From an uncultured Gammaproteobacteria bacterium (GTDB taxonomy: Bacteria; Patescibacteriota; Microgenomatia; UBA8517), in the NCBI GenBank assembly GCA_965231135.1, contig OZ246419.1, positions 81,028 to 145,027 of the forward strand: 64,000 nucleotides of DNA. Reading direction: 5' to 3'. Within the stretch, counting starts at the first letter, position 1. Each line of letters opens with the position of its first letter. The notes below the pieces were generated by a model. It saw nothing but the letters and a program-made list of their open reading frames with translations, was not told the DNA's origin and made no database searches. This document shows positions 28,680 through 60,196 of this stretch, in pieces. A program made the position numbers and the translations under genes.

Positions 28680-28733
28680 CCCAAGGTGTTCGGTCGCATA
28701 AGCGAAGCTTGTGGCGACCCACCTCGCAAGCTC

Positions 28734-28821: not shown

Positions 28822-28828
28822 CTTAGTT

Positions 28829-38047: not shown

Positions 38048-38425
38048 ATGATGAATTTACTCGCACAAGCACAAAGTGGAACAGGCGGAACAACAGGTGA
38101 ACAAACAATTAATTTACAGCCACAAGCTGGTTTAGTTCCCAGTGTTAGCGGTATAACAATAAGTAGTCTTCTGGGTGGTGCAATTAATTTAATTTTGGTA
38201 GCTGCTGCTTTGATCTTTTTTATAATGCTTGTGATTGGTGGAGTTCAGTGGATCCTTTCTGGAGGAGACAAAGGACAAACTGAAGCTGCAAGAGGAAGGA
38301 TTACAGCTGCTTTAATTGGTTTGGTAATAGTATTTGCCGCTTGGGCAATTGCAAGTTTGGTTGGAAGTTTGTTTGGAATTAATATATTTAGTTTGCAGAT
38401 AACTCCAATATCTAGTTTTAAGTAA
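38048..38425 (+). CDS. Pilin-like two-helix membrane protein, paralog 6
   Basis: MMNLLAQAQ N-terminus; GGVQWILSGGDKGQTEAARGRITAALIG loop. Confidence 0.55.
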   Translation: MMNLLAQAQSGTGGTTGEQTINLQPQAGLVPSVSGITISSLLGGAINLILVAAALIFFIMLVIGGVQWILSGGDKGQTEAARGRITAALIGLVIVFAAWAIASLVGSLFGINIFSLQITPISSFK

Positions 38426-42494: not shown

Positions 42495-44156
42495 ATGACT
42501 AAATTAATTTCAAAATTTTTAATTTCTATAATTACAAGTTTGGTTTTGGTTTTCAGCATTGTTCCTGCTGCAATGGCACAAACACCAAATCCAGCACAGG
42601 TGGGAACACAAGGAGTAGGACAAGCACTGCAAGGAGCAGCACCAGAATCTTCTACCAATACTACGTCTGCAACTCCAGGGCCATGGTATAACCAGAACTT
42701 TGGACAGTGGTCTGCAAAAGTTTTTGACTCTTCTAACCCAAATGAGATATTTGGAGAAAGATACACATACGCACAGGTTAACTGGATTATTAATTCATTA
42801 ATTGCGGTGATTATTGGATCTGATATTAGTAGCTGCATTTCTTCTGGCTCAAACGGAAACGTCTCGTCGATAGGTACTTGTGCAGCAAAATTATTACCAA
42901 GCAACCAAACAAGTAATAATACTGGAATGAAAGGTGGAACTTTTACCGCTTTATCTTATTTAGGTGGAACATTAATGAATTTTAAACCTGCATCTGGAGT
43001 AAATTATACCAAGCAAATCGCTTCTAATTTACATGTAATATCTCCAGCTTATGCTCAAAGCACAAGCGCTGGTTTTGCAACGCTTTCTCCTGTTCAATCT
43101 TTGTGGCAAGTAGTGAGGGATATTTCTTATTCTTTAATGGTTGTAATAATAATTATTGCTGCCTTTGCAATAATGTTTAGATTAAAATTGTCTCCTCAGC
43201 TTACAGCTTCTATTCAATCAATATTACCACGTATTGCCGTTGCATTAATTTTAATCACTTTTTCTTATGCAATCGCTGGTTTTTTGATTGATTTAATGTA
43301 TGTAGTTATTGGAGCGTTTGCTGTTATGGTAAAAATAGGAGGTTCTACCTTAAGTACAGGTTCGGTTCTATATCTTTTTGGTCAGCTTAATTCTATTAAC
43401 GGACTAACAAGCCTTTTTATCGGGATGTTAATTTTTATCGTGCTATTAGTAGGCGGCGGAGCTTTATTAACGTTAGGAGCAATAAGTGCTGGTGTGATTT
43501 CTGGTGGTATAAGTGTATTAGGTATACCAGTTGGTATTATTATTGTATTGGTTGGAGTTATTTTTGTAGGGTGGATTATTTTGCGTTTAATTTGGCTTTT
43601 GGTTAAAACCTCTGTTATTACTGTTCTTTTAATTATTGCTTCTCCGTTTATGATTTTAGGTGACACTTTAGATATTGGTGGTGGATTTATAAGTTGGTTT
43701 AGAACACTTGCTGCTAATTTAGCCGTTTATCCAACTGTAACAATCATGATTTTTTTGGCTCACTATTTCTTTTGGGGATGGGCAGCTGGTGCACTTACAC
43801 AGATTTTTCCTACCAATAATCCTTTTAATACTTATGCCATTTCTGCTCTTAATATAAATGGGACGTCTGGTGTGATTAATTTACCTGGCATGCCTATTGG
43901 TACATCTATAATTGGTTTTTTTGCAGCTTTTATAATTGTATTTTTAATTCCAAAAGCTGCAGATGTAGTTGAAGGAATAATTAAAGGTAAAGGTGTGGAT
44001 GTTGGAGGTGCTGTTAAAGAATCTCACGGTCCAGTTCGAGCTCTACTCGCATCTCGTGCTGCAAGTTATGAAACTTATAAGAGATCGTTGCCAGGAGGCG
44101 ATCCAAAATATGTTGATCCAGTCGCACAATTCCTTCGATCAACTGGCATTATGTAA
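42495..44156 (+). CDS. VirB6/TrbL-like polytopic T4SS channel protein with N-terminal extracytoplasmic domain
   Basis: Signal peptide, ~190-aa exposed domain, then six or more long hydrophobic helices with Gly-rich segments; size and topology typical of VirB6/TcpH/ConG-like proteins; the call rests on architecture and locus context. Confidence 0.5.
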   Translation: MTKLISKFLISIITSLVLVFSIVPAAMAQTPNPAQVGTQGVGQALQGAAPESSTNTTSATPGPWYNQNFGQWSAKVFDSSNPNEIFGERYTYAQVNWIINSLIAVIIGSDISSCISSGSNGNVSSIGTCAAKLLPSNQTSNNTGMKGGTFTALSYLGGTLMNFKPASGVNYTKQIASNLHVISPAYAQSTSAGFATLSPVQSLWQVVRDISYSLMVVIIIIAAFAIMFRLKLSPQLTASIQSILPRIAVALILITFSYAIAGFLIDLMYVVIGAFAVMVKIGGSTLSTGSVLYLFGQLNSINGLTSLFIGMLIFIVLLVGGGALLTLGAISAGVISGGISVLGIPVGIIIVLVGVIFVGWIILRLIWLLVKTSVITVLLIIASPFMILGDTLDIGGGFISWFRTLAANLAVYPTVTIMIFLAHYFFWGWAAGALTQIFPTNNPFNTYAISALNINGTSGVINLPGMPIGTSIIGFFAAFIIVFLIPKAADVVEGIIKGKGVDVGGAVKESHGPVRALLASRAASYETYKRSLPGGDPKYVDPVAQFLRSTGIM

Positions 44157-44164: not shown

Positions 44165-46171
44165 TTATTTAAAATAATCGCGGTGTTGAGATGTAAAGGC
44201 AGATTTAGCTTGCATCCAGTTAAGCCCAAATGCGTCGTTTTGAATGAAGTTAAAACCTTTTGATTTGTTTTTAATTCCAAACCACAGCTTAAGGATATTT
44301 TCTCTAATAGAGTTATCTAATTTTAGTTTTTTGACAACGTTGCTTAACTCTTGTCCGTTTATCCCTGATCCTTGTCCTTTCATAATAACGTCGTATAATT
44401 TTTTTGCGGAGCCAAGATCTTCTAAATAATATCCTGAAAACGGAGTATTCCCAACTTCTTTCCAAGGAATATTGTTTGCTGAGACCGAAGCTGAGCCATT
44501 ACTCCAAATTTCTCTTCCTACATGTTGTAGAACTTCAAACAGATTTACTTTTCCGTCTTTGTCTTTAGTTATTCCATATGCATCAATTTCAGAAGTTGGT
44601 TTGAATGTTATAGCTTTTAAAGCGTTTCCAATAGTTTTTCGAGGGAGAACTACAGGAAATTTATCGATATTTTTAACATTTTTATATTGTAATGACCATT
44701 CACCTGCTTGCCCCATAGCTTCAGGGGTACCACCAGTCGCTTTGGCAAAAAGCCTTTCTTGTGGATGCATAACCATCCACATTGCTGGACTTTTAAAATG
44801 ACTTGGTGCTGCATTTGGAATTGGTTTATTTCGATCATTTCTTTTTACAACGTGGCCTTCATTATCGTAGTTATATACACTATCATATTCTTCAAGAACA
44901 CTTGTAGCATATATAAGGTTCCAAGCGACAGCTTCTGCTTTTTTAGCATCTTCTTCGTTCACTCCTGTTTTATCCATTAGGAATTGCCACATACCCTTTC
45001 TAAAAGAGTCAAACTGTTCGTTTGTTTTAATATCAAAAACACTCCTTATTTCGCCAGGGTTATTCATGTCATTATTTGGAATATGTATAAATCTGATACT
45101 CTTATCATCTGAGATGACTGTGGAGTATAGTGCCGCTGCGTTAAATACTCCATTTATTTTCATTCCATTTTCTAATGTCGAATTCTCTAGCTGATATCCT
45201 AGTTGGTTGTCTGTTAGTTTATCGTATGAAACTGCTGCTCTTTTATAAGCTGCAAAAGACCATATAGAGGCACGAGCTTTCCATTCTTTAGTTATTATTT
45301 CTCTTTCTTTCGGATTATTATGTCCAATAAGTAAAAATGCTGGAACTTTTAATGTCATATCTACTGGGGCATATGCACCTCTTTCTACTGTTTCATATAT
45401 TTCAAGTTGTTGTTCCGGCGAACCTTCTCCAGAGGCCATGGCAAAGCCACGAGCAATATCTTCGGCTGTAAGCCCTGTCGCTCCACCTTGCTGCAACATT
45501 TGTATATAAGCAATCATTTGTTGCATTAATTGTTCTTGAGTATCTGGTTTCGGAGGTTGTTGTTTTTTAAGTTCTTCATTAAGATATGATTTTGCCTGAC
45601 TTTCTAATGCTTGTGGTGGCAAACCCCAACCTCTAACGCCGATTTCTCTTTTTAAAGGTGCTATTTTGGGGCTGTTTTCTGGTGCTCCTCCTGCTCTTCC
45701 AAGAGCTAATGCCATATTTAAAACAGCAACATCTCTATATTCACTTAGAATCCCATCATAAGCGTCATTCCAGCCTTCTACTCCTTTTTCAAAGTCTTCT
45801 AATTCTTCAACATTGAGTGCGTTTATTTTCCCGTATGCAGTTTTATAGTCATTATTCAGTTGGATATCTATTAATGCGTTTTTAAGTTGTTTAAAGACGC
45901 CTTGTTCTTGTGCAGAACGAATAATACGAGCTCTTTCTGTTTTTAATGTTTTTTCTTTTTGTGGATCAGGATTGTTAATTAAAGTTTTTAATTCATTTTG
46001 GACTTCGCTAAAAGGGCGAGGAAATTCTTGTTTAGATTCTGCTCCACTTCCGCCTCTTTCAAAAACATGATGACCACTGGGCCTTGGCATTTCAGGCCTT
46101 TTTCCAAAATCAGGATTGAAACCCATATTTTCTGGTGTCATGTTTGTATCTGGAGAAACTCCATCGGGCAT
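44165..46171 (-). CDS. Large hypothetical protein (668 aa) of unknown function
   Basis: Long clean ORF on opposite strand within the T4SS-like locus; no signal peptide, no nucleotide-binding motif found. Confidence 0.45.
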   Translation of the reverse strand: MPDGVSPDTNMTPENMGFNPDFGKRPEMPRPSGHHVFERGGSGAESKQEFPRPFSEVQNELKTLINNPDPQKEKTLKTERARIIRSAQEQGVFKQLKNALIDIQLNNDYKTAYGKINALNVEELEDFEKGVEGWNDAYDGILSEYRDVAVLNMALALGRAGGAPENSPKIAPLKREIGVRGWGLPPQALESQAKSYLNEELKKQQPPKPDTQEQLMQQMIAYIQMLQQGGATGLTAEDIARGFAMASGEGSPEQQLEIYETVERGAYAPVDMTLKVPAFLLIGHNNPKEREIITKEWKARASIWSFAAYKRAAVSYDKLTDNQLGYQLENSTLENGMKINGVFNAAALYSTVISDDKSIRFIHIPNNDMNNPGEIRSVFDIKTNEQFDSFRKGMWQFLMDKTGVNEEDAKKAEAVAWNLIYATSVLEEYDSVYNYDNEGHVVKRNDRNKPIPNAAPSHFKSPAMWMVMHPQERLFAKATGGTPEAMGQAGEWSLQYKNVKNIDKFPVVLPRKTIGNALKAITFKPTSEIDAYGITKDKDGKVNLFEVLQHVGREIWSNGSASVSANNIPWKEVGNTPFSGYYLEDLGSAKKLYDVIMKGQGSGINGQELSNVVKKLKLDNSIRENILKLWFGIKNKSKGFNFIQNDAFGLNWMQAKSAFTSQHRDYFK

Positions 46172-46892: not shown

Positions 46893-47885
46893 TTAACATA
46901 CACCTTCAAAGACCTGGCCACAGGAACATTGATACCCTGGCTCAATCTTTTTTTCAATAACTTTGTGACAATATGGGCATTCTTTGACGTATTTGGCTTT
47001 TTTCTCGCCTAAATTTGCTTGTCTAAAATTGCCCATGCCGTCCATGACATAATTTCCAAAGCGAAACTCAAGCTCCTGATTTAGCGAACCTGGGCAAGCA
47101 TAAGTGTTTATTTTCCAGCCTTTTTCCTGCATTAACCTTTCTGCTGCCGCCCCGGAGCGGATATAATCTCTTTCGTGAACTGCAAATTCCAATTCAATAC
47201 TCATTTGCTTTGCAATTGGCAAGGCATCCCATACTGCCCTACTTTTAATTTTTCTTGGGGCGCCTTTTTTTATTTCTTCTAACGCTTTCGAATCAAGATC
47301 TAAAAAATCTAAATTGGAGGTTAAAAAGGCAGCTTGGCGCAAATCATCCGGATTAAAAATCAAATCTTTACCTTCTTTAATTAATAATTTATCAGCAAGT
47401 AATAATAAATCCTGGGGAGACAATTTCGAAGGGATTCCGTAACACTCCAGCACTTTCATACCCAAAAGATGTCTTACTTTAGCAATATTAATTCTTGATT
47501 CTTTATAGGGAGAATTACCTCCTGAAGGACTAAAAGAAATAATAAATTCATTTTCTTTTGCTTGCTTAGCTTTTTGATAATAAAAATCTATTGCGCCTGC
47601 AGTCTCGGCAGATGATAATTCATTGTTGTTACCAAAATTGACAGCTACTTCTTCGCGAGAGGTTAGATTAATAATTTTACCTTCTTGAGTGATAGCAATA
47701 TACCAAGGATTAATTCTTTCTTCTAAGTTTCTGTCTCCTGCTTCAATGACAAGGCCGGCAAGATCGTGGGCAATAACCCAGCTGCGTTTTTTTAAAGAAT
47801 ATTTTTTATAGATTGCAGTATCAAATACTTTTTTTGTTTCTGTGAAGTCAAATTGAGAATTTATTTTTTCTTGACGATCTACCAT
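46893..47885 (-). CDS. Hypothetical protein with C-terminal CxxC...CxC zinc ribbon
   Basis: C-terminal ECPYCHKVIEKKIEPGYQCSCGQVFEGVC. Confidence 0.45.
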   Translation of the reverse strand: MVDRQEKINSQFDFTETKKVFDTAIYKKYSLKKRSWVIAHDLAGLVIEAGDRNLEERINPWYIAITQEGKIINLTSREEVAVNFGNNNELSSAETAGAIDFYYQKAKQAKENEFIISFSPSGGNSPYKESRINIAKVRHLLGMKVLECYGIPSKLSPQDLLLLADKLLIKEGKDLIFNPDDLRQAAFLTSNLDFLDLDSKALEEIKKGAPRKIKSRAVWDALPIAKQMSIELEFAVHERDYIRSGAAAERLMQEKGWKINTYACPGSLNQELEFRFGNYVMDGMGNFRQANLGEKKAKYVKECPYCHKVIEKKIEPGYQCSCGQVFEGVC

Positions 47886-48095: not shown

Positions 48096-49316
48096 ATGGA
48101 ACAGCATCCAGTACCACAAAATATTAGTAGCTATCAGTTTCACCTTGTGGGGGACATGACGCTGAAGCAGTTTTTGGAAATTGGAGGAGGAGTCTTGGTT
48201 GCAGTTTTATTTTATGCAACTGGGCTTCCAGGGATAATTAAACTTCCATTAATTTTAATATCTTGCGGACTTGGCGCCGCACTTGCTTTTGTACCACTTG
48301 AGGAACGTCCACTTGAACAATGGATATTTGCCTTTTTTAGATCTGTATACTCGCCTACTCAATTTCATTGGGATAAAAAACAGGACGTTAAATATTTTGC
48401 AGATGAGAGCGCGACTGAAAATACTGGAGCATCAACCCAAAATACAAAAACAAACCCTGTTTCAAATATTCCATTTTTGAATAAACTCGATTCATCTGAG
48501 AGCTCGTATCTATCTAAACTTGCGGGGGTTTTTAATCCAACTGTTTCACAAACCGCTACTCCAGCTATAGAAACAAAACAAGAAATACAAACACATAACG
48601 AAACAGTGATCAATCACCCAAGCTTTAATCCTAACCCTATTAATTCTGCTTCGCAGAGCGATTCAACACAAACACAAACTACAAACACGCAAACAATTCC
48701 ACAGATAAACGCAAACACTGACAATTCAAGAATAAATGTCACAGCAAGCTTTAACACAAATAGCTCAGGAGATATTTTGACAGAACACATTCAAGGCGGA
48801 GAAACTCCAATACAAGCTACGCCGTCCGTACAACAACCCAAGGAAGTTGTTGTTCCAACAAGCGGACCAATATCTGTTGAACCAACAATTGAAGAGAGAC
48901 CAAAAATTGTAGTACAAGAAATTAAAAGACCTGTTGAAAAGATTGATATCACTCAAACTGCTGTAAACCCAACACTTATTGGGGGTGCAGTTGGCGATGC
49001 ACAACAAGCTAGCTTTTCAGTGAACGCTGCACCACCTTCTTTGCCTACAATCCCTAATACAATTTCTGGTCAAGTGATGGATTCAACAAGTCATATAATT
49101 GAAGGGGCTATACTTGAAATAAAGGATGCTGAAGGACGAGCTGTACGAGCACTTCGCACAAATAAGGCAGGACACTTTTTGATTGTTACACCGCTAATTA
49201 ACGGAAAATATAATATCGTACTTGAAAAAGAAGGATATAATTTTGAACCGATTGAATTTGAAGTAAACGGAGGTATTATTCAGCCAATTGCTATTCGAGC
49301 AAAAGCAATAAATTAA
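48096..49316 (+). CDS. Membrane protein with N-terminal two-TM module, Thr/Gln-rich linker and C-terminal carboxypeptidase-regulatory-like beta domain
   Basis: Two TM helices in first 90 aa (possible VirB3/PrgI-like module); C-terminal ISGQVMDSTSHIIEGAILEIKDAEGRAV...TNKAGHFLI...GKYNIVLEKEGY matches the CarboxypepD_reg pattern. Confidence 0.5.
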   Translation: MEQHPVPQNISSYQFHLVGDMTLKQFLEIGGGVLVAVLFYATGLPGIIKLPLILISCGLGAALAFVPLEERPLEQWIFAFFRSVYSPTQFHWDKKQDVKYFADESATENTGASTQNTKTNPVSNIPFLNKLDSSESSYLSKLAGVFNPTVSQTATPAIETKQEIQTHNETVINHPSFNPNPINSASQSDSTQTQTTNTQTIPQINANTDNSRINVTASFNTNSSGDILTEHIQGGETPIQATPSVQQPKEVVVPTSGPISVEPTIEERPKIVVQEIKRPVEKIDITQTAVNPTLIGGAVGDAQQASFSVNAAPPSLPTIPNTISGQVMDSTSHIIEGAILEIKDAEGRAVRALRTNKAGHFLIVTPLINGKYNIVLEKEGYNFEPIEFEVNGGIIQPIAIRAKAIN

Positions 49317-49317: not shown

Positions 49318-50058
49318 ATGCAAAACAACAATCAACAAAATCAGTCTCAACCAATACAAAAAACTCCCAACAAAACAGTTGATAATGCAAAAAACATGAT
49401 TGGAAAGATTCCTTTTTTGAATCTTCCTGATTTACCGCTTATTTCTACAACACAGGATGAACTTCCAATTGCTGATATAACTGACGATTTAGTTTTATTT
49501 AAAGATGGAGGAGCAGCTTTGGTCATGGAAACTACTTCACTTAACTTTGGATTGTTATCTGAAAAAGAACAACAAGCCGTAGTTTATTCATATGCTGCAC
49601 TTCTTAATTCACTTTCTTTTTCAATACAAATACTTGTTAGATCTCAGCGAAAAGATATAAGCAATTATTTAACTTATTTAGCTGAAGCTGCTAACAAGAT
49701 TTCCAATCCTAAACTACAGGTTGTTATGAACTCTTATAGGACTTTTATTGCTGAGATTGTTAAAAAGAAAAATGTTTTAGGAAAGCGATTTTTTATCGTT
49801 GTACCATTTTCTCCACTGGAACTTGGAGCTAAACAATCTTTTTCGACAGTCACAAAACGAGGGCCACTTCCCTTTCCTAAAAGTTATATTTTGAAAAAAG
49901 CACAAGTGGCGCTTTATCCAAAACGAGATCATTTAACAAGACAGGCTGGAAGACTTTCTATAAAATTAACACAATTAAATACAAACCAATTAATAGAATT
50001 ATTTTATGAATTTTATAATCCGACGCCGCCAGCAATTACTGATAAAGGAATCAAATGA
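49318..50058 (+). CDS. VirB4/TrbE N-terminal domain encoded as a separate ORF
   Basis: LPIADITDDLVLFKDGGAALVMETTSLNFGLLSEKEQQAVVYSYAALLNSLSFSIQILVRSQR matches the CagE_TrbE_VirB N-terminal signature; stop overlaps downstream start in ATGA. Confidence 0.55.
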   Translation: MQNNNQQNQSQPIQKTPNKTVDNAKNMIGKIPFLNLPDLPLISTTQDELPIADITDDLVLFKDGGAALVMETTSLNFGLLSEKEQQAVVYSYAALLNSLSFSIQILVRSQRKDISNYLTYLAEAANKISNPKLQVVMNSYRTFIAEIVKKKNVLGKRFFIVVPFSPLELGAKQSFSTVTKRGPLPFPKSYILKKAQVALYPKRDHLTRQAGRLSIKLTQLNTNQLIELFYEFYNPTPPAITDKGIK

Positions 50059-51809
50059 AAAACTCTAAACCACAGATTTCGAATCCATTAATTGAATATG
50101 CAAAAGGTGAAATGAGCGTTCAAGATATTATTGCTCCAAAAGAATTTGAGATTGATTTTGATTATGTAAAAATTGGAGACACTTATCTTCGAACTCTTTT
50201 TGTGGGAGGGTATCCGAGATTTGTAACTCCAGGATGGCTTGAACCTGTTATTAATTTTAATCATTCAATGGATATTTCTTTTTATATTTATCCAGTTGAA
50301 GGCAAAGATGTACTTGATGATTTGAAAAGAAAAATTACAGAAATGGAAGCTGAAATATCAACTGATATACAGCGCGGGAAAATAGTTAATCCATCAACTG
50401 AGGCAAAACTAGAAGATGCGCGAGCGCTTCAGGAGCAGCTTGTGAAAGGAGCTGAAAGATTTTTTGAGTTTTCATTTTATATAACTATTCCTGCTGCAAC
50501 CTTGGAAGAACTTAACCATGTAACAAAACAAGTAGAATCAACGCTTGGATCACTTTTGATTGTAGGCAAAAAAGCTTCTCTTGATATGGAGAGAGGGTTT
50601 TTGTCTACAGGACCGATTGGATTTGACAGACTTTCAATAACGAGAAACATGGATACAACTTCTCTTGCCACAACATTTCCTTTTACATCTGCAGAATTGT
50701 CTTCTGATACAGGAATTCTTTATGGAATAAATCCTCAAAATGAATCATTTATTATTTTTGATCGCTTTAGTTTGGAAAATTATAATATGACAATCTTTGC
50801 TACTTCTGGAGCTGGAAAATCTTTCTTTGTGAAACTTGAAAGTGTACGATCTTTAATGCTTGGAAGCGAAATAATCATTATTGACCCTGAGGCGGAATAT
50901 AAACCTTTAACTGATGCAGTGGGCGGAGAATATATTTCTTTTTCTTTTAATAGTCCTGCTAAAATTAATCCTTTTGATTTGTCGCAGATTTATGAAGAGG
51001 GAGAAAACCAACTTGGACTTAAAATACTTTCGCTGCATTCACTTTTCAGAGTTATTATGGGAGAACTAAATGCAACACAGGATGCCATGCTTGACCGCGC
51101 TCTTGTAATGACATACCGCTCTAAAGGGATTACACAAGACCCTGGGACACAAACTAAAGAGCCGCCGCTTATTGAGGATCTTTATAAAACATTGATTGGA
51201 ATGGAAGTACCTGAAGCACTTGACCTTGCTGCACGAATTGAAAAATATGTAAAAGGATCATTTGTTGGAATTTTTGATCAACAAACAAATATTGATATTA
51301 CAAACCCTTTTACTGTATTTTCTATTCAAGACCTTCAGGAAGTACTTCGACCGATTGCAATGTTTATAATATTAGACTTTATATGGACAAAAGTGAAAAA
51401 AGATAAAAAGAAACGCTTATTAATTGTTGATGAAGCCTGGATTATGATGAGATATCCAGATACGGCACAGTTTTTATGGAGCGTTGTGAAGCGGGCACGT
51501 AAATATTTTTTGGGGCTTACTACAATAACTCAAGATGTGGAAGATTTTTTGGGACAAGATATTGGAAAAGCTATTGTTACAAATTCATCGCTTCGTGTTT
51601 TATTGAAACAATCCCCTGCTGCAATTGATAAAGTTGGAGATTTGTTTTATCTTTCACAAGGAGAAAGGCAACTTCTCATGGCAGCAAACGTTGGCGAAGG
51701 AATATTTTTTGCAGGACCACACCATGCACCAATTCGCGTGGTTGCATCACCTGAAGAATATAAACTTATAACTACAAAGCCGAGCGAAGTAATAGACAAG
51801 AAGGTATAA
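50055..51809 (+). CDS. VirB4/TraC/TrbE-family T4SS ATPase (central and C-terminal domains)
   Basis: YLRTLFVGGYPRFVTPGWLEPVIN region, Walker A FATSGAGKSFFVK, Walker B LLIVDEAW, conserved GxTQ and R-finger regions. Confidence 0.85.
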   Translation: MKNSKPQISNPLIEYAKGEMSVQDIIAPKEFEIDFDYVKIGDTYLRTLFVGGYPRFVTPGWLEPVINFNHSMDISFYIYPVEGKDVLDDLKRKITEMEAEISTDIQRGKIVNPSTEAKLEDARALQEQLVKGAERFFEFSFYITIPAATLEELNHVTKQVESTLGSLLIVGKKASLDMERGFLSTGPIGFDRLSITRNMDTTSLATTFPFTSAELSSDTGILYGINPQNESFIIFDRFSLENYNMTIFATSGAGKSFFVKLESVRSLMLGSEIIIIDPEAEYKPLTDAVGGEYISFSFNSPAKINPFDLSQIYEEGENQLGLKILSLHSLFRVIMGELNATQDAMLDRALVMTYRSKGITQDPGTQTKEPPLIEDLYKTLIGMEVPEALDLAARIEKYVKGSFVGIFDQQTNIDITNPFTVFSIQDLQEVLRPIAMFIILDFIWTKVKKDKKKRLLIVDEAWIMMRYPDTAQFLWSVVKRARKYFLGLTTITQDVEDFLGQDIGKAIVTNSSLRVLLKQSPAAIDKVGDLFYLSQGERQLLMAANVGEGIFFAGPHHAPIRVVASPEEYKLITTKPSEVIDKKV

Positions 51810-51815: not shown

Positions 51816-54800
51816 ATGGTTCCGCTTGAACTTATTAATTCAGAGAATTTAGGACTTGCTTTAGAATCTTTTTCATACTTTACACAACATCCTCAAGAAA
51901 TATCTTATGGGAAGATAAAAAAAGATGAACTTATTGATTTTATCTTAGATGTAACCAATCAAGAAGATATTAATAAAGCAATTTCTGTATTAAATAAGCT
52001 TTATAGAGAAAAACTTGCTGAAGAAAATAAACCTGTAGCTCCTCCCCCGCAACCAAGCGTAACAGTTCCACTTAATTCAAAAGATTTGGTTGCAGCTCTT
52101 GATAAATATATTGCTGACAAAAAAGAACAAGCGAGACTTTACGATGAGTTTGTTGGCAGCTTTGAAAGACAAGAGGAAGCAAAAGCTTACCAAATGAAGC
52201 TTGAAGATGAAGCACAAATCAGACAAATGATCCGTCAAGATGATCAAAGGTTTATTCAGGAAACTGTAAAGCGAACTGCAAAACAACAAAAAATAACTAA
52301 TGAACAAGCAAAAGAGTTAGTTCAACAAAGAATTAATAATTTAAATAAGACAACTCCTCAATTTAAAACAAGAGTTGCAGAAGAACTGCGAAAAAGTATT
52401 GCAGTAAAAAATGAAGTGCTTCCTGCAGAGACAGAAGAAAGAATCACACAAGCTGTAAATGATTACACTGATCGCGGAATTGTTCCTGATTTAAGAAAAA
52501 TAAAAGCTTTTGAAGATCAACCTAAATCAAAAGAAGAAGTAAGAGAGGAAATAATTCAGGCTGTTACTAGTTCTGCAAGCGAAAAATTAACAGCAGAAGC
52601 TCAAGAAAAAGTAGATAAATTAGTTGATGAAGTTATTAAGGAGGGAAGAAAAATTGATAACGATGAGGTAGTCGCAAGAGTAAGGCTTGCTGAGCCAATT
52701 ATTGTAGCGCCAGAACAAAAAACTGTGCCTGTTGTTTTAAATAAAGAAGAAGTAAGAATTTTAGATAACGATCTTCAAGAATTACAAACTAGCAGAGAAC
52801 AATTTATTGAAGATAAGGCAACTAAAATTGCGAGTAACTTAAGAAATTCAGGGCTGGTAAAAAATTTGACTCCCAAACAAGTTAATCAGATTTCAACAGA
52901 AATTTCTCGCGACAATGCAGAAAAATTAGAACCTTTAGCAAAGCAGGTTGAAGGAAAAACAATAGAAGACAGACAAGTATTGCTTTCACAAATACAAAAA
53001 CCAGCTAACCCAGTTGCCATATTAGGACCTGCAACCGACCCTAAATCGTCTATCTATCAAAATATTCCAGATGCACAAATTATAGCTGCGAAAATGGAGA
53101 AATTAAGAATAAGAGCTGCTACTGAAGAAGATTTTATTGAAAATGGATTGTCAGCAGAATATGACAAAAACATAATAACTGCTTTGAGAGGAGATCCTCT
53201 TGAAAAATTTCAAGAAGTTGAAGAAGAAGAAAATAAAAAAGGTTATGAGTTTGATTTTAATAAAGCATATGATTTATATCAAAAGTTTTTTAGGAACCAA
53301 GAAACTATTATTACTTCTGCTGAAACTGCAATACAACTAGCGCAGCCTGAAATTATTCCTTTTATTTTTGATGCAAGTATTGGATCTTATGCAGGATTTA
53401 CAATTGCATCGTCAATTGTAGCTGAAGCAAGTAGTAATGCAATAGCAACACAAGTTTTTAATCCCCGACTTCTGCAAATCTCAAACGCAATGCTTCCATC
53501 AACTAGTTTTGCATTACCTGGTGCAACAGGAGTAACGATAAGCGAAGGAGTTGTAGGACAACTTGCTGGGTACATATCACTTGGAGGGGCGCAAGGGGTA
53601 CCTGTTTTTATTATTACAGGAGGACAGGCTGGAGCAACACTTCTTGCTGAAGGAGCAACAACTTTTTATTTGGGAGCTCCTCAAGCAGTTGCAGCTCTCG
53701 CTGAAAGTGGTGTAGCAGAGCTTGGAACGGGAATTTTTGCTGAAGGATTAACAACTGCAGCAAGCCTTGGAGCAGAAGGTGGAGTAGTTGCTGCTACGGC
53801 AGTTGGCGGAACAGAACTAGCAGTTGCAGGAACTGGAGCTGCAGCCGCTACCGCAACCACTGCAGCTGGGGCTGCTACAGCTGCCACCGGAGCATTAGGC
53901 GCACTTGCCGGATTTATTGCAACACCTCTTGGAGCTTTAATTACAGGATTTTTGGTTAGTAAAATTCTACCTTTAATTAAGAAATATATTGTTCCTATTT
54001 TTGCCGGAATTGGTGCATTAGTTGGAGGAGTTGTTTTTGGAGGATTCGGAGTTTTGGGAGGGGCAGTAGTTGGGGCAGGACTTGCAGGAGGATTAACAGC
54101 TGGAACAATAGAAGGAGCTGTAGCGACAGTTACTGGAGGAATTGCAGCACTTGGAACAGCGTTTGCGACGGCAATTATTGGGCCATTTATTGCTGCTTTA
54201 ATTGGAATTCCAGTTATTGTTGCTTTAATTTTATTTATTATAAATAGCGGAGCCTATGTGGTACCTCAAGGGACTGGTTTTTCGCTAGGAACAGGCGGAG
54301 GAGTTAATATTAGTGAGCCATGCGATACTGCTTCTATTCCAGGAAATCCAGCTGCTGCTGCAGTTTGTATAGTTGATGCCCTGATTCAATCTAATTTAAA
54401 TCCTCTAAATTCGACTATGTTTACATCCACAAATTGGAGCGGTTTTGTAAGTTCATTACCAGCTCCTGTAGTAAAACCAATTCACGATGTTACTGCAAAT
54501 AATTTTAATCTTCAATGTACAGCTCTGGTTGCAGCAAGCGCCGCTTATGCTTATAGTCAAAACTTTTTACTTAATCACCCAAAAGCTTGCGGTTATCTTT
54601 ATACACCACCAAGCGGTTATACAGCAATACACGGAACCGCAGGAATTGCTGCAGGAGATTTTTTTATAATTGATGGAACTCCAAATTGCAGTTCTGGAAC
54701 AGCAGGGCATATTGGCGTGGTAGAATCAGTTGACGGAGCATTAATTAGCTGTGCTGATGCTAATTATATTGGACCTGGAGCGGTGAGAGTTGCTCATGGA

Positions 54801-54845
54801 TGTTTTGCGTTATCACAAATTACTGGATATTTAAGAAAACAATAG
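51816..54845 (+). CDS. Giant membrane protein (1009 aa) with coiled-coil N-terminus, Gly/Ala-rich multi-TM core and C-terminal CHAP-domain peptidoglycan hydrolase
   Basis: C-terminal ...LQCTALVAASAAYAYSQ...GDFFIIDG...GHIGVVESVDGALISCADANY matches CHAP catalytic Cys and His; central AAGAATAATGALGALAGF low-complexity hydrophobic region. Confidence 0.6.
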   Translation: MVPLELINSENLGLALESFSYFTQHPQEISYGKIKKDELIDFILDVTNQEDINKAISVLNKLYREKLAEENKPVAPPPQPSVTVPLNSKDLVAALDKYIADKKEQARLYDEFVGSFERQEEAKAYQMKLEDEAQIRQMIRQDDQRFIQETVKRTAKQQKITNEQAKELVQQRINNLNKTTPQFKTRVAEELRKSIAVKNEVLPAETEERITQAVNDYTDRGIVPDLRKIKAFEDQPKSKEEVREEIIQAVTSSASEKLTAEAQEKVDKLVDEVIKEGRKIDNDEVVARVRLAEPIIVAPEQKTVPVVLNKEEVRILDNDLQELQTSREQFIEDKATKIASNLRNSGLVKNLTPKQVNQISTEISRDNAEKLEPLAKQVEGKTIEDRQVLLSQIQKPANPVAILGPATDPKSSIYQNIPDAQIIAAKMEKLRIRAATEEDFIENGLSAEYDKNIITALRGDPLEKFQEVEEEENKKGYEFDFNKAYDLYQKFFRNQETIITSAETAIQLAQPEIIPFIFDASIGSYAGFTIASSIVAEASSNAIATQVFNPRLLQISNAMLPSTSFALPGATGVTISEGVVGQLAGYISLGGAQGVPVFIITGGQAGATLLAEGATTFYLGAPQAVAALAESGVAELGTGIFAEGLTTAASLGAEGGVVAATAVGGTELAVAGTGAAAATATTAAGAATAATGALGALAGFIATPLGALITGFLVSKILPLIKKYIVPIFAGIGALVGGVVFGGFGVLGGAVVGAGLAGGLTAGTIEGAVATVTGGIAALGTAFATAIIGPFIAALIGIPVIVALILFIINSGAYVVPQGTGFSLGTGGGVNISEPCDTASIPGNPAAAAVCIVDALIQSNLNPLNSTMFTSTNWSGFVSSLPAPVVKPIHDVTANNFNLQCTALVAASAAYAYSQNFLLNHPKACGYLYTPPSGYTAIHGTAGIAAGDFFIIDGTPNCSSGTAGHIGVVESVDGALISCADANYIGPGAVRVAHGCFALSQITGYLRKQ

Positions 54846-54848: not shown

Positions 54849-55463
54849 ATGAGTAGAAAATGGAAAATAATAATTGCTGGAGTTGTAATTTTTATAGTTA
54901 TTATAATTATTTCTTTTCTGACTTCAACTCAAAAAAACCAAATTCAAGGACCGCTTACTATAACAAGCTCAGTACCTTCCAACCAAGCAAGTAATGTTAA
55001 TGTTTTTGATCCAATTACAATAACTTTTAATCAAAATATAAATCCTGCTTTGATTGGTGTTACATCAACTCCAAACGAAAACTGGAGTATTTCTCAAAAT
55101 TCACCAGCCACAATTACAATTAACCATACACTTTATCTTCAAGAAAACACATCATATCAACTCTCAATTAATCAAAGCGGAGTCTCTATTGGAATATTAA
55201 ATTTTAAAACAGCTCAAGACCAAAACGATCCGCGGCAATTACAACAATTACAGTCAGATCTTAATAAAGATTATCCCCTTGCATCACTTACACCTTACGA
55301 AACTGCTGATTTTAAAGTAGTTTACAGTGCACCACTTACACTGGAAATAGATCTTAAAAGTGCTATTAGTTCACAAGATGCAATTTCGCAAGTAAAAACA
55401 TGGGTAAGCACAAACGGAGTTGACCCTTCAACACATACTTACAGGGTAGTTCCTAGTAAATAA
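54849..55463 (+). CDS. Membrane-anchored hypothetical protein with Ig-like beta domain
   Basis: N-terminal TM helix; S/T/N-rich extracytoplasmic part. Confidence 0.4.
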   Translation: MSRKWKIIIAGVVIFIVIIIISFLTSTQKNQIQGPLTITSSVPSNQASNVNVFDPITITFNQNINPALIGVTSTPNENWSISQNSPATITINHTLYLQENTSYQLSINQSGVSIGILNFKTAQDQNDPRQLQQLQSDLNKDYPLASLTPYETADFKVVYSAPLTLEIDLKSAISSQDAISQVKTWVSTNGVDPSTHTYRVVPSK

Positions 55464-55467: not shown

Positions 55468-56598
55468 TTAGCTTTGGACTCTAACTGGCATAATTAAATG
55501 AAGAAAGTTTTCGTTTTTACTGTCTACAAAAATTACAGGAGAAACTGCATCTGTTAATTTCATTTCAACACTATCCCCTTCTGCATTATTCAGGAAATCT
55601 TCTACAAATTTATAATTAAACAAGACTTCAAGCGACGGGCCTTTTATCTCTGCTTCAATACTCCCTTTTTCATTGCCAGCCTTTCCTTCGCTTGTTACTG
55701 TGAGAGACCCTTCGACTCCATCAGAATTTCGCTCAGGATGACCTATGGTCATTTTGATTAAATTGCCAACGTCTTTAGCAAAAATACTTGCTAGCTTTAC
55801 ACTTTTAATAAGATCATTTTTATCAACACTTACAAGAGTAGTTGATGAAACGGGAATAATTTTTCCAAAATCAGGAAAGTTACCATCAATTAAACGGGTC
55901 GTAAAAAAGACATCGTTTATTTTTATAACAAGCTGATTTTCTGTTTCTTTAGATTCAATTAAAATCTCTTTGGCATTGTTTCCTATTTTTAAAAGCTCAA
56001 GAAGAGAGTTTTTGGGAATTATAACCGGCTTTAGGGATATTTCCTTGGATAAATTGACTGTGGTTTTTGATAAACGGAAGCCATCTGATGCTACTAGAGT
56101 TAATTTCGAACTTTCAAATATAAATAACACACCAGTTAGAACTGGGCGAGCAACATCCGCTCCAACTGCAAAAAGAATTTTAGTTAAGGCAGCTTTTAAT
56201 TCATCAAAAACTAAAGTAAAACTTTTTTTATCATCTATTTCATTTGGGATTTTAGGAAAATCGTTTGAAGGTGTTACTGGTAAATTAATTTCTGAATTTT
56301 GGGAAACTATTTCCATTTTTTCATTTTGTGCAATTAAATCTATTTGGCCTTTATTTAAATTAGAAATGATTTCCTCAAAATATTTTGCCGGAATTGTAAT
56401 ATTTCCTTCCTCTTCGACTTTAGCGCCAATCGAAGTTGAAATTGACATTTCAAGATTGGTTGCTGAGATTTTTAGTTTTGTTTTATCTGTTTCTAATAAG
56501 AAATTACTAAGAATTGGGAGAGTTGTACGTGACGCTATAAATCGTATTGCTGTTTGTAAGTTATTATTCAGATCTTCCTGAAGTACTTGGACTTTCAT
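55468..56598 (-). CDS. dnaN: DNA polymerase III beta sliding clamp
   Basis: N-terminal MKVQVLQEDLNNNLQTAIRFIASRTTLPILSNFLLETDKTKLKISATNLEMSI is the classic DnaN start; 376 aa; sits next to dnaA. Confidence 0.9.
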   Translation of the reverse strand: MKVQVLQEDLNNNLQTAIRFIASRTTLPILSNFLLETDKTKLKISATNLEMSISTSIGAKVEEEGNITIPAKYFEEIISNLNKGQIDLIAQNEKMEIVSQNSEINLPVTPSNDFPKIPNEIDDKKSFTLVFDELKAALTKILFAVGADVARPVLTGVLFIFESSKLTLVASDGFRLSKTTVNLSKEISLKPVIIPKNSLLELLKIGNNAKEILIESKETENQLVIKINDVFFTTRLIDGNFPDFGKIIPVSSTTLVSVDKNDLIKSVKLASIFAKDVGNLIKMTIGHPERNSDGVEGSLTVTSEGKAGNEKGSIEAEIKGPSLEVLFNYKFVEDFLNNAEGDSVEMKLTDAVSPVIFVDSKNENFLHLIMPVRVQS

Positions 56599-56802: not shown

Positions 56803-58182
56803 TCAAAGGATCTGTTTTATCCCCATGATATCCTCACGAGTTTTGGCATCGCTTGAAGCTAGAGAAGTTACTTTTTCCACAGCGTGCATGACAGTGCTAT
56901 GATCGCGGCCGCCAATTGTTTGGCCGATTTCATCAAAAGGCAAACCTAATTCAATCCTGAGAAGATACATTAATATTTGCCTTGGACGCGCGACTGATTG
57001 AGAACGGACATGACTTAATAAAGCTTTCTTGCTTACAGAAAAATGAGTTGAGACTGCATCAAAAACTTTTTCTGGGCTTACTTTTTCTTTTGGAGTTAAA
57101 TTTTCTATACCATCCCCTCCTTTACTTAATAATGATTTTACGAGATTTTCGTCGATGGGAATATTTTTTATCTTACTTTCTGAAAAGAGGCGAGTCAGAA
57201 AACCTTGAATTTGTCTTGCCCCTTCGATATTGCCTGCAATAATACTTACAAGTTCTATTGGTAGTTCAATTCCCTTTTCTTTTCCTTTAATTTGAATGAT
57301 GGCACATTTTAATTCGAAGTCAGCTTTTCCTATATCAACAGTTAAGCCCGCTTCAAATCTGCTTTTTAATCTGTCTTCGAGATTTTTAATTTTTGAAGGT
57401 TCTGTATCTGAAGTTAATATAATTTGCCCACCAGAACCGACTACAGCATTAAAGGTGTGGAAGAACTCTTCCTGGACACCTTCTTTGCCGCTTATAAACT
57501 GAATATCGTCAACAAACAAGCCTTGAAGCTTTCTGTATTTATCTCTTACTGCTTGCGTTGTTTTATTTCTAATTCCCTGCACTACTTCATTTGTGAATTC
57601 TTCTGCAGAACACAATAATACTTTTGCATTTGGATTTGATTTAATCATTTTAAATCCAACTGCTTGCATTAAATGGGTTTTGCCTACTCCAACTCCTCCC
57701 CAAATAAAAAGCGGGTTGTATGCAATACCAGGAGTTGCTGCAATGCTTTGGGCTGCGGCGTAGGCCATTTGATTGCTTCCTGAGACAGCGAAGTTTTCGA
57801 AAGTGAAACCTAAACGAATATTACTTGAAACTAGTTTTTGAGTTAGATCTTCATCTTTGTCATCTTCGGCAAAAAGAGGCGCGATTGGAATTTCTTTTTT
57901 TGGAGCGACTGAGGCGACTGCTCCAACTGTGAATTCTAAATCGACTGGTGCATCAACTGCTTTCATTAGAGAGTCTTGAAGAAGGCCGAAATATCTTTCC
58001 TGAATTGTTTGCTTAACAAAATAAGAATTACAAACTATTGTTGCAAGATAACGAGTGTCATTTACTTTTTTTAAACTGCCTAATTCAGTTTGAGAGATCC
58101 AAGTTGAAAAGATTGCAGCGGAGACTGAAACTTTTACAGATTCTAAAACATCATGCCAGATTTGAACTTTATCCTGCTTCAT
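56803..58182 (-). CDS. dnaA: Chromosomal replication initiator protein
   Basis: AAA+ Walker A GGVGVGKTHLMQAVG; C-terminal DNA-binding domain ...IGGRDHSTVMHAVEKV; perfect TTATCCACA box upstream at 58207-58215. Confidence 0.9.
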   Translation of the reverse strand: MKQDKVQIWHDVLESVKVSVSAAIFSTWISQTELGSLKKVNDTRYLATIVCNSYFVKQTIQERYFGLLQDSLMKAVDAPVDLEFTVGAVASVAPKKEIPIAPLFAEDDKDEDLTQKLVSSNIRLGFTFENFAVSGSNQMAYAAAQSIAATPGIAYNPLFIWGGVGVGKTHLMQAVGFKMIKSNPNAKVLLCSAEEFTNEVVQGIRNKTTQAVRDKYRKLQGLFVDDIQFISGKEGVQEEFFHTFNAVVGSGGQIILTSDTEPSKIKNLEDRLKSRFEAGLTVDIGKADFELKCAIIQIKGKEKGIELPIELVSIIAGNIEGARQIQGFLTRLFSESKIKNIPIDENLVKSLLSKGGDGIENLTPKEKVSPEKVFDAVSTHFSVSKKALLSHVRSQSVARPRQILMYLLRIELGLPFDEIGQTIGGRDHSTVMHAVEKVTSLASSDAKTREDIMGIKQIL

Positions 58183-58911: not shown

Positions 58912-59760
58912 ATGAATATTTTTACTACATACTTAATACAACCTTTGGCAAACGGGCTTGTTATCTTCTATCGCTTACTTGGAAATAACATGGGACTTGC
59001 TATTATTGGCTTTTCTATTGCACTTGCACTTCTTATTAGACCCTTTACTAAAAAATCATTGGAGTCGATGAAAAAAATGCGCGAAATACAACCTCAACTG
59101 GATAAGTTAAAAAAGAAATATAAAAACGATAGAATGAAATTAACCCAAGCTCAAAGCGAGCTCTATAAACAATATGGAGTCAACCCTGGACTTGGAGGAT
59201 GTTTGCCTATTATTCTGCAGCTGGTTGTGTTTTATGGACTTGTTGAAGTTTTTATTCAATACCTTTCAAATGCAAGCGTTACAAAATTTAATACGATTCT
59301 CTACTCACCTCTTAAATTTGACGCACACGAAATGATTAATACAAAATTTTTATATTTAGATTTAACTAAGCCTGATACATTTAATATTCATGGAATTCCT
59401 TTTGCAATTCCGGGACTTTTTCTAATTCTTGCCGGCGTTTCACAGATGATATCTGCAAAAATTGCCAGCCCTTATATTGAAAAAGAAGAACAAATTGCAA
59501 AAAAGACTAAAGGCGAAATGGATGATGCTATGGTTGCTATGCAATCTTCAATGATTTATACCCTACCTCTTATGACACTTTTGGTTGGAGGACGTTTTCC
59601 TTCTGGCGTTGCCATTTATTGGGTAACATTTTCGATTTATCAGGCGTTTCAACAATACAGAACAACTGGGCTTGGAGGCCTAAAATCTTGGATTAAAGCG
59701 CTTCGTGTGATACAATCGGGGAATGGAAACGCAAAAGGAAATACAAAATCTTCTAAGTGA
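58912..59760 (+). CDS. yidC: Membrane protein insertase YidC/Oxa1 family (short form)
   Basis: Five TM helices, GGCLPIILQLVVFYGL conserved insertase motif; synteny. Confidence 0.8.
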   Translation: MNIFTTYLIQPLANGLVIFYRLLGNNMGLAIIGFSIALALLIRPFTKKSLESMKKMREIQPQLDKLKKKYKNDRMKLTQAQSELYKQYGVNPGLGGCLPIILQLVVFYGLVEVFIQYLSNASVTKFNTILYSPLKFDAHEMINTKFLYLDLTKPDTFNIHGIPFAIPGLFLILAGVSQMISAKIASPYIEKEEQIAKKTKGEMDDAMVAMQSSMIYTLPLMTLLVGGRFPSGVAIYWVTFSIYQAFQQYRTTGLGGLKSWIKALRVIQSGNGNAKGNTKSSK

Positions 59761-60196
59761 GTTATTTAAACTTATTGGTATTGAGGTAAAAGCTGAAATC
59801 ACAGAGGAAAAACAGGAAGAAGGAACTCTTTACAAAATAGAACTTGACCCAGGAGAGAGTACAGGACTTCTTATTGGTGCACACGGAATGACTTTGTCAT
59901 CTATTCAATCATTTTTGACTATAGCTATGAAACAAAAAACAGGGGATTGGGTAAAGATATCTTTAGATGTTGCTCACTGGAGCGAAAAACAAAATGAAAG
60001 ACTTGTTGAACTTGCAAAACAAACCGCAGAGCGCGCACGACAAACTGGAGAAGAAAAACTTTATAACTTGAATGCAAACAGTAGAAGAATTATTCATATG
60101 ACTTTAGCTGAAGAAAAAGATATTGAGACAGTTTCTGAGGGAGAAGGAATTGACCGCTACTTAGTTGTAAGGCATAACACGAAGTTAAAGAAATAA
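59723..60196 (+). CDS. jag: Jag/KhpB RNA-binding protein (KH + R3H)
   Basis: C-terminal R3H motif RRIIHMTLAEEKDIETVSEGEG; synteny after yidC. Confidence 0.75.
   Translation: METQKEIQNLLSELFKLIGIEVKAEITEEKQEEGTLYKIELDPGESTGLLIGAHGMTLSSIQSFLTIAMKQKTGDWVKISLDVAHWSEKQNERLVELAKQTAERARQTGEEKLYNLNANSRRIIHMTLAEEKDIETVSEGEGIDRYLVVRHNTKLKK

Follow-up and report, generated by a model that had tools for sequence, protein, structure and literature searches.

The window, the whole 64,000-nt stretch of DNA that was analysed, carries a chromosomal type IV secretion system (T4SS) locus beside dnaN and dnaA, in which two forward-strand genes, hereafter ORF1 and ORF2, lie between a gene for a PrgI/VirB3-like membrane protein and one for a candidate cell-wall hydrolase. 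In the ORF listing of the window, both genes have an ATG start. The features considered here are as follows:

35516–36283, + strand: T4SS pilin-like (VirB2-like) protein, 255 aa (PF18895 T4SS_pilin, E 9.8e-6, 26.0 bits, just below the cutoff of 26.6)
37648–38037, + strand: T4SS pilin (VirB2-like), 129 aa (Pfam PF18895, 29.3 bits, above the cutoff)
38048–38425, + strand: T4SS pilin (VirB2-like), 125 aa (Pfam PF18895, 39.9 bits)
48096–49316, + strand: PrgI/VirB3-like membrane protein with a C-terminal CarboxypepD_reg-like domain, 406 aa (PF12666 PrgI, residues 5–87, 29.1 bits against a cutoff of 27)
49318–50058, + strand: ORF1, 246 aa, stand-alone TrsD/TraD-like protein ("TraC-like", PF26593), putative counterpart of the VirB4 N-proximal module
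50045–50049, + strand: Shine-Dalgarno-like AAGGA within the 3' end of ORF1, 5 nt upstream of the ORF2 ATG (read directly)
50055–50058, + strand: ATGA start/stop overlap of ORF1 and ORF2 (read from the sequence)
50055–51809, + strand: ORF2, 584 aa, VirB4-type ATPase without the N-proximal module (NCBIfam conju_CD1110, Pfam, PDB 4ag5)
50805–50822, + strand: Walker A motif SGAGKS, ORF2 residues 251–256 (G-GKS invariant in alignment A4)
51417–51440, + strand: Walker B motif LLIVDEAW, ORF2 residues 455–462 (DEAW invariant in alignment A4)
51816–54845, + strand: 1009-aa protein with a C-terminal CHAP-like domain, candidate VirB1/PrgK-like cell-wall hydrolase (Pfam CHAP, E 6.7e-5, 23.7 bits, below the cutoff of 26)
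54849–55463, + strand: Big_5 Ig-like domain protein, conserved as the final gene of the block ahead of dnaN (Pfam Big_5, 39.2 bits; same position in loci L004–L007)
55468–56598: dnaN
56803–58182: dnaA

The PrgI/VirB3-like gene ends 1 nt before ORF1 and is also found upstream in homologous loci. The position downstream of virB4 is occupied by a hydrolase (CHAP or M23) in relatives, and a hydrolase is found there in Bacillota plasmids too. With a PrgI/VirB3-like gene beside virB4 and VirB2-like pilins in the cluster, the locus has the composition of a monoderm (MPF-FATA-like) T4SS; no relaxase or coupling-protein domain was seen among the scanned window ORFs, which were part of the total. The junction between the two genes reads ...GGA ATC AAA TGA, and the overlap that had been noticed in the sequence-only reading is present: the ATG of ORF2 (50055–50057) runs into the stop codon of ORF1 (50056–50058), which places ORF2 in the −1 frame with respect to ORF1.

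ORF1 begins with a Q/N-rich stretch predicted to be disordered (residues 1–42), followed by a folded core (residues ~43–235); 71 alignment columns of this strongly conserved core are invariant across 26 sequences. For this protein, hhalign against single sequences was less sensitive than the NCBIfam models. ORF1 matched the TrsD/TraD model NF041427 with an E value of 4.5e-7, but with 29.9 bits against a cutoff of 200. Of 44 diverse ORF1 homologues, 43 matched this model (best E 3.3e-10), all 44 matched VirB4_plasma (best E 3.5e-13), in which ORF1 maps to positions 108–232, and 26 matched the N-terminal part of the CD1110 model. With E values of about 1e-5 to 1e-13 in these models, ORF1 bears a distant likeness to VirB4 N-termini. 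The local Pfam scan of ORF1 returned no family, although precomputed tables list PF26593, a match marked as "weak" for the exact ORF1 protein and left unmarked for its relatives. The peptide LVLFKDGG...LLNSL, found at ORF1 residues 58–99 (49489–49614), had been presented as a diagnostic VirB4/TrbE signature; this was overstated, given the remote homology and the lack of a match between ORF1 and Pfam CagE_TrbE_VirB. Sequence searches of the PDB with ORF1 alone or with a 44-sequence profile found nothing, so the link to TrwK comes from fold comparison only. The best structural matches of the ORF1 model were to TrwK/VirB4, with TrwK at the top; the AF2 models were mediocre (pLDDT 66.5 and 63.4) and were used for fold-level matches only. 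ORF1 also has the layout of TrsD/TraD, as a stand-alone protein of ~200–250 aa encoded directly upstream of an N-terminally short VirB4. Judging from these comparisons, ORF1 is homologous to the N-terminal portion of single-chain VirB4.

In ORF2, residues ~26–235 correspond to the second part of the VirB4 N-terminal region and residues ~240–575 to the RecA-like ATPase domain. The protein scored 399.1 bits with NCBIfam NF045971 conju_CD1110 (cutoff 325), aligning to model positions 180–752 (of 752); it entered TIGR00929 at position 240 of 792 and VirB4_plasma at position 289 of 894, extending to position 875 of the latter. It is without about the first 180–200 residues of single-chain VirB4s: the complete N-terminal region of ~400 aa is not found on its own chain, and ORF1 supplies the missing part. 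Pfam returned P-loop_TraG (111.6 bits), AAA_10 and DUF87, and the VirB4 C-terminal domain of PDB 4ag5 matched residues 240–573 with an E value of 2e-48. The Walker A/B ATPase domain that had been assigned to ORF2 was located, as was the quoted peptide YLRTLFVGGYPRFVTPGWL, at residues 44–62 (50184–50240). By its sequence, ORF2 is a VirB4-family T4SS ATPase.

Both proteins tile onto P0147, a natural single-chain Patescibacterial VirB4, with ORF1 residues 43–234 matching P0147 residues 8–199 (51% identity) and ORF2 residues 26–583 matching residues 213–771. The proposal that ORF1 aligns to the VirB4 N-domain, and that the combined 830 aa amount to one full-length VirB4, is borne out by these matches and by those to VirB4_plasma. 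The two ORFs had also been expected to tile without a gap; they do tile, but 13 residues of the fused protein are left between them, and the break falls in a poorly conserved linker. Fused homologues of the ORF1-ORF2 type occur in some Patescibacteria, in the same synteny, and among close relatives they are interspersed with split ones. The NJ/parsimony count of fusions and fissions was biased by the use of a fused query, as the distant sequences in the top 120 were all fused, and it was therefore used only for the interleaving among close relatives.

An internal duplication of the VirB4 N-terminal region, in which the ORF1 module would be a paralogue of the first ~210 residues of ORF2, was also considered. 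The two halves have the same order of secondary structure in the AF2 model of P0147, the fused protein, and local matches were obtained by BLASTP (E 0.002) and, at equivalent positions, by hhalign (E 0.05), but reciprocal HMMER comparisons were no better than shuffled controls and left the duplication unsupported. The idea of an ancient tandem duplication, with the break between the repeats, is speculation.

The N-termini of ORF2 and TrsE align, so the break point is the same as in the TrsD and TrsE pair of pGO1/pSK41, and it is also that of the TraD and TraE pair of pIP501/pAMbeta1. In the pGO1/pSK41-type plasmids of S. aureus, as here, a gene of ~200–230 aa lies directly upstream of a short VirB4 of ~650–670 aa (in CP051966, traD of 227 aa and a DUF87/TrsE protein of 670 aa), and a CHAP hydrolase is encoded downstream of TrsE, its candidate counterpart at this locus being CHAP-like. 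However, the homology between TrsD and ORF1 is remote (the sub-cutoff score given above; hhalign against S. aureus TraD, E 1.4e-4), the plasmid genes are 20 nt apart rather than overlapping, and they belong to a conjugative system that includes a relaxase and a coupling protein, whereas the locus described here is chromosomal. In pAMbeta1 (Inc18; pIP501 TraD and TraE type), a 209-aa hypothetical protein is encoded upstream of a 653-aa TrsE, and the order VirB2-like, VirB3-like, TraD, TrsE and lysozyme-family hydrolase corresponds to that of the pilins, PrgI-like protein, ORF1, ORF2 and candidate hydrolase of the window; this system belongs to a conjugative plasmid, and its TraD gave no significant match to the ORF1 profile (E 0.22). 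The hhalign comparisons of this profile were made against single sequences (template Neff 1), so this result and that for PrgJ (also E 0.22) are uninformative. Plasmids of the pCF10 type share the PrgI-PrgJ-PrgK synteny with this locus, and ORF2 lies above the cutoff of the CD1110 family of PrgJ-type single-chain VirB4s. PrgJ is a single chain of 796 aa, and ORF2 residue 37 aligns to about its residue 241, so PrgJ holds the ORF1-equivalent module covalently. In the R388 structure papers, the N-terminal domain of TrwK/VirB4 reportedly binds the VirB3 and VirB8 tails. The R388 protein (PDB 7o42, 7o41, 8rtb, 8rtd) is a single-chain VirB4 from a diderm MPF-T system, with only 10–17% identity.

The Patescibacterial T4SS described by Quinonero-Coronel et al. 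2025 (PMC12102498) is the same system, with a TrsD homologue by virB4, PrgI/VirB3, VirB2-like pilins, a location near dnaA and, here among the scanned ORFs, no relaxase. According to that survey, no T4SS component is more abundant in Patescibacteria than TrsD beside virB4; in the passages searched, TrsD is treated as a separate component with no function assigned, neither a complementary truncation of VirB4 nor TrsD-VirB4 fusions are described, and "fusion" or "fused" is applied only to VirB3-VirB4. The two-gene VirB4 arrangement is already known and is no new kind of system, and its N-terminal piece appears to be the protein called TrsD/TraD in the pGO1/pSK41 and pIP501/pAMbeta1 plasmids. The tiling onto natural fusions, the interleaving of fused and split forms and the match of the ORF1 model to TrwK/VirB4 go beyond the published work.

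We consider it about 85% probable that the two genes encode a two-piece VirB4 motor of the chromosomal Patescibacteria (CPR) T4SS locus by dnaN/dnaA, in which TrsD/TraD-like ORF1 and ORF2, as the remainder, are coupled and assemble as two chains. Homology, tiling, conservation of the split and natural fusions are matters of observation; translational coupling, 1:1 assembly and a docking role for ORF1 are inferred. The two genes would share a transcript, and their translation is probably coupled by way of the ATGA overlap of 4 nt and the Shine-Dalgarno-like AAGGA in the last codons of ORF1; this coupling would yield roughly equimolar amounts of the two products. These products may assemble non-covalently into a VirB4-equivalent ATPase. 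With the PrgI/VirB3-like membrane protein encoded upstream as its docking site, this ATPase would drive a pilin-containing T4SS.

Though descended from a VirB4 N-terminal module, ORF1 might instead now be an independent accessory factor (an adaptor, regulator or scaffold, possibly sub-stoichiometric or interacting with other partners) and not a subunit that is always needed to complete the ATPase. Many ORF1 homologues carry disordered tails of 100–500 aa, which are absent from fused VirB4s, and some TrsD-like genes lie apart from virB4, as at locus L003 and in PMC12102498. However, the two parts have re-fused repeatedly in nature within the same synteny, which points to 1:1 action in one complex, and the conserved tight spacing of the genes, usually overlapping or adjacent, together with the strong conservation of the ORF1 core, also makes a purely accessory role unlikely. 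The split may also be functionally exploited rather than neutral, the detachable TrsD-like module serving the essential T4SS as a subunit for docking or regulation that can be tuned on its own. Many lineages would then have extended it with the disordered, Q/N/P-rich tails, and repeated fission and re-fusion would mark lineages that changed between regulated and constitutive assembly of the VirB4 motor; this reading is doubtful.

Programmed −1 frameshifting at the A-rich junction could give rise to a fused VirB4 besides or instead of the two proteins, in keeping with the −1 frame of ORF2 and with the natural fusions, which show that a single chain is functional. However, the canonical X XXY YYZ slippery heptamer is absent from ATC AAA TGA, and ORF2 has its own ATG and Shine-Dalgarno-like motif. 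Junctions were compared in a metagenome scan with an alignment query (a contig scan with ORF1 alone yielded only three distant loci). A stop codon separates the two genes in 71/71 distinct junctions, with ORF2 in any of the three relative frames and gaps of −23 to +32 nt, the −4 overlap being the commonest type (15/71); Shine-Dalgarno-like 4-mers precede the ORF2 start in 39 of the 71, compared with 15% of 15-mers drawn at random from these loci. Since the relative frame varies (+2, +1, 0) and junction sequences are unrelated among homologues, there is no conserved recoding signal, and frameshifting is very improbable.

A homopolymer error (AAA for AAAA at 50053–50055) that broke a single 830-aa virB4, the other option raised, fairly in principle, in the sequence-only reading, would be undone by a single added A, which brings the ORF2 ATG into the frame of ORF1 and joins the two genes, and fused homologues do exist in some Patescibacteria. 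However, the 2,492-nt two-gene region shows 0 mismatches in the Logan assemblies of two runs (SRR12170510 and SRR12170514) and the same break is conserved in thousands of homologues, so that an error is excluded for practical purposes. The best 120 of 4,523 ORF1 homologues are all stand-alone proteins of 188–287 aa; the nearest relatives (76–88% identity; L008–L012) are split too, with differing junctions (gaps of −4, −1, +2, +4 and +21 nt); and 17 of 82 loci have both genes in one frame with stop codons between them, which an indel error does not explain. The inspection of related loci for fused or split states, as had been proposed, showed relatives to be mostly split, with a stand-alone ORF1, and some to be natural fusions. 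A genuine split gene was therefore the correct option, but not an unusual one, as virB4 is split by default in Patescibacteria and Gram-positive conjugation systems of the pGO1/pIP501 type. The split is genuine and old, an ordinary feature that has already been described.

A recently disrupted, decaying virB4 pseudogene, for which the internal stop relative to single-chain VirB4s speaks and nothing more, is hardly credible, as both ORFs are intact and highly conserved (ORF2 homologues at 61–94% identity), both Walker motifs are preserved, the break point is common to the whole phylum and to Bacillota plasmids, and a cultivated relative cannot do without its T4SS genes, the TrsD homologue among them (PMC12102498, PMC10633639).

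For annotation, the two-piece motor reading implies that the "hypothetical protein" of ~220–250 aa upstream of virB4 in Patescibacterial T4SS loci should be recorded as the VirB4 N-terminal module (TrsD-like), and that no truncation or frameshift should be assigned to a "VirB4" of 580–620 aa. The T4SS is essential for the epibiotic lifestyle of the one genetically tractable Patescibacterium, having been reported as essential in Ca. Southlakia epibionticum ML1 (Wang et al. 2023, PMC10633639), and a two-chain VirB4 with natural single-chain controls would provide a simple handle for structural and genetic work.

The sequence-only reading had proposed a VirB4 encoded by two translationally coupled ORFs, resulting either from a genuine, and unusual, split or from a frameshift or sequencing error. 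The ORF pair and its ATGA overlap were correct in the ORF listing and junction sequence of the window, and the peptides cited were found at residues 58–99 of ORF1 and 44–62 of ORF2.

49318–50058, + strand, ORF1, 246 aa, stand-alone TrsD/TraD-like protein gene
50055–51809, + strand, ORF2, 584 aa, N-terminally short VirB4 ATPase gene
ORF2 residues 251–256, Walker A (SGAGKS)
ORF2 residues 455–462, Walker B (LLIVDEAW)

The window sequence shows that the ATGA at 50055–50058 is common to both ORFs, with AAGGA 5 nt before the ORF2 ATG. Relative to ORF1, ORF2 is read in the −1 frame, such that a single A added to the AAA preceding the ATG would join the two ORFs, and the concern about a sequencing error was therefore reasonable. 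However, the pair (246 aa + 584 aa) was recovered without a mismatch across its 2,492 nt in Logan assemblies from two different runs. The search with ORF1 yielded 4,523 homologues (E ≤ 1e-3), the best 120 of which were all stand-alone proteins of 188–287 aa from Patescibacteria; the C-termini of the homologues varied in length and sequence, all ending soon after a conserved ...ELFY..YNP. The metagenome scan yielded 80 loci, and in the 82 fetched loci from all sources with both genes, the relative frame of ORF2 was +2 in 39, +1 in 26 and 0 in 17. An indel artefact is excluded for the same-frame pairs, which have stop codons between the two genes. The gap from the ORF1 stop to the ORF2 start ranged from −23 to +32 nt at 71 distinct junctions, the commonest values being −4 (ATGA, 15), −1 (9) and +1 (6), and a Shine-Dalgarno (SD)-like tetramer preceded the ORF2 start at 39 of these junctions, versus 15% of random 15-mers. 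The synteny order (PrgI-like, TraC-like, VirB4, hydrolase and Big_5, followed by dnaN and dnaA in reverse orientation) was also kept. The break between the halves is ancient, conserved and tightly spaced. The identical assemblies, the conservation of the break and the same-frame pairs show that the split is genuine rather than a frameshift or sequencing error, but it is not unusual, as TrsD with VirB4 is an already known architecture, found in Bacillota plasmids and in a 2025 survey.

ORF2 belongs to the VirB4-type ATPases. It matched NCBIfam conju_CD1110 with 399 bits (cutoff 325), restricted to model positions 180–752, with similarly late starts on other full-length VirB4 models (289/894 in VirB4_plasma and 240/792 in TIGR00929), and its residues 240–573 matched the crystal structure of a VirB4 C-terminal domain (4ag5, E 2e-48). 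ORF1 had no match in the local Pfam copy, the precomputed Pfam tables assign proteins of its type to PF26593 (TraC-like), and its match to NCBIfam TrsD/TraD (E 4.5e-7) fell far under the curated cutoff. ORF1 also matched positions 108–232 of VirB4_plasma, the model that ORF2 continues from 289. Among 44 diverse stand-alone homologues (27–56% identity to ORF1), 44 matched VirB4_plasma (best E 3.5e-13), 43 TrsD, 26 CD1110 and nine TIGR00929. The 14 best Foldseek matches of the predicted ORF1 module were all chains of TrwK, the VirB4 of plasmid R388, such that the structure prediction agrees with VirB4 homology; EccE, from type VII secretion, was also among the structural matches. Residues 1–42 of ORF1 form a short Q/N-rich stretch with pLDDT <50.

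A natural fusion of both halves, the cluster representative P0147 (787 aa), has the same synteny and is present in independent assemblies. ORF1 (residues 43–234) and then ORF2 (residues 26–583) tiled along its residues 8–199 (51% identity) and 213–771 (67% identity), with only 13 residues between the matches; a second fusion (L077, 880 aa) has a different linker. Each ORF is homologous to one of two successive stretches of a single VirB4, and one-chain forms of the protein occur in this gene context too. The best 120 matches to P0147 included 43 fused clusters (738–897 aa), 67 split-type VirB4s (570–667 aa) and nine bearing inteins. Both fused and split forms are present in Candidatus Amesbacteria, and fusions are rare where sampling ignored fusion (one in about 76 metagenome loci and one in the 150 best cluster representatives). 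In a neighbor-joining tree of the ATPase part, from a sample skewed to fused sequences at large distances, fused and split forms were interleaved, with a parsimony minimum of eight changes. How such a change happens is visible in two closely related loci, split L095 (198-aa and 584-aa ORFs with an ATGA overlap) and fused L096 (797 aa), where small indels in an unconserved linker make the difference. In one lineage with fused VirB4 (L096/L097), a bAvd/23S_rRNA_IVP-family gene (1228–1599) directly precedes the PrgI-like gene; the Pfam families of its product are those of a diversity-generating retroelement accessory protein.

Some patescibacterial VirB4 genes contain an intein that includes a homing endonuclease of the LAGLIDADG type (PF14890 Intein_splicing and PF14528), giving proteins of 1158–1257 aa (P0308, P0309, P0312, P0318, P0319, P0360, P0362, P0371 and P0387; loci L002, with the ORF at 4603–8376 encoding 1257 aa, L026, L037, L047, L061 and L079). 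At these loci, the ORF2 match restarts around residues 238–256, in the Walker A region, 1.8–2.5 kb downstream. The ORF2 of the window contains no intein.

Outside the phylum, comparable pairs are found in the pSK41-like Staphylococcus aureus plasmid CP051966 (traD, 227 aa, then a DUF87/TrsE protein, 670 aa), pAMbeta1 (209 aa, then TrsE, 653 aa) and a Bacillus thuringiensis plasmid (237 aa + 645 aa). Among plasmids, ORF2 was best matched (38.5% identity) by one of Pontibacillus, with genes of 274 aa and 621 aa overlapping by 11 nt, the upstream one 28% identical to ORF1 (tblastn). PrgJ of the pCF10 type forms one chain of 796 aa. By match coordinates, the ORF2 N-terminus coincides with the extreme N-terminus of TrsE-type proteins but with about residue 241 of PrgJ, and the break point is therefore common with TrsE-type systems.

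The searched text of the 2025 survey (Quinonero-Coronel et al., PMC12102498) reports 2,272 TrsD homologues, 1,664 of them adjoining virB4, and lists that of Ca. Southlakia epibionticum ML1 as essential. The same text contains no mention of TrsD-VirB4 fusions or of a complementary VirB4 truncation, "fusion" and "fused" being used for VirB3-VirB4 only. Our additions are modest: the explicit tiling of both ORFs on naturally fused VirB4s, evidence that fission and fusion recurred within a variable linker, and the structural match of the predicted TrsD-like module to TrwK.

ORF1 and ORF2 would be co-transcribed and are probably translationally coupled, given the ATGA overlap and the SD sequence inside ORF1, and their products may assemble 1:1 into a VirB4-equivalent ATPase. 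ORF1 would supply the surface docking the ATPase on the VirB3-like membrane protein (PrgI) encoded upstream, a role presumably similar to that in the R388 structures. A partly independent adaptor, rather than purely half of a split enzyme, is an improbable alternative that nevertheless keeps a small share of our credence, because many TrsD-like proteins carry long disordered tails and some of their genes do not adjoin virB4. In many of these proteins, the conserved domain occupies the first ~205 residues and is followed by 100–500 aa of Q/N/P/S/T-rich low complexity (P0189, 705 aa; P0211, 715; P0159, 597; P0136, 488; P0125, 369), with no Pfam domain in the tails. A distant TrsD-like gene (L003, 3941–4717, 258 aa, 30% identity to ORF1) has no VirB4 gene in the 3.9 kb fetched downstream, the ORF that follows it being oppositely oriented, and genes away from virB4 are reported in Gracilibacteria in the searched survey text (PMC12102498).

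In the AF2 model of P0147, the VirB4 N-terminal region has two halves, residues 16–198 and 218–371 (equivalent to the ORF1 core and ORF2 residues ~30–185), with an identical order of predicted secondary-structure elements (βββαβααβαβα). Weak local similarity was found at equivalent positions (BLASTP E 0.002; hhalign E 0.05), but reciprocal HMMER comparisons of the N-terminal halves were no better than shuffled controls, and an ancient internal duplication is therefore only speculation.

The pilin-like and SLT_3-like genes upstream indicate that the T4SS cluster probably extends over ~35.5–55.5 kb, and dnaN, dnaA, yidC and the KH/R3H gene follow directly, such that the secretion locus abuts a likely replication origin region.

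35516–36283, 37648–38037 and 38048–38425, three T4SS pilin-like genes (PF18895)
38795–41989, 1064-aa protein, weak SLT_3 lysozyme-like match
55468–56598, − strand, dnaN
56803–58182, − strand, dnaA
58912–59760, + strand, yidC
59723–60196, + strand, KH/R3H (Jag-like) gene

The locus fits the literature in its pilin genes and dnaN/dnaA/yidC neighbors: the T4SS of ML1 is essential and has pilins (Wang et al. 2023, PMC10633639), and the searched survey text places the cluster often near dnaA, and beside the origin region in many Patescibacteria (PMC12102498). The large ORFs at 42495–44156, 44165–46171 (−) and 46893–47885 (−) had no Pfam match; the protein encoded by the last has paired Cys motifs (CPYC...CSCG) at its C-terminus that suggest a zinc ribbon. 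Elsewhere in the window (27198–28822 and 30515–30928) are six clustered tRNA genes, for Ser (four), Arg (one) and Asn (at 23992–24064), together with a tmRNA gene encoding the tag peptide AKSNDQASEVNPLMALLGVGSNQSALAFA.
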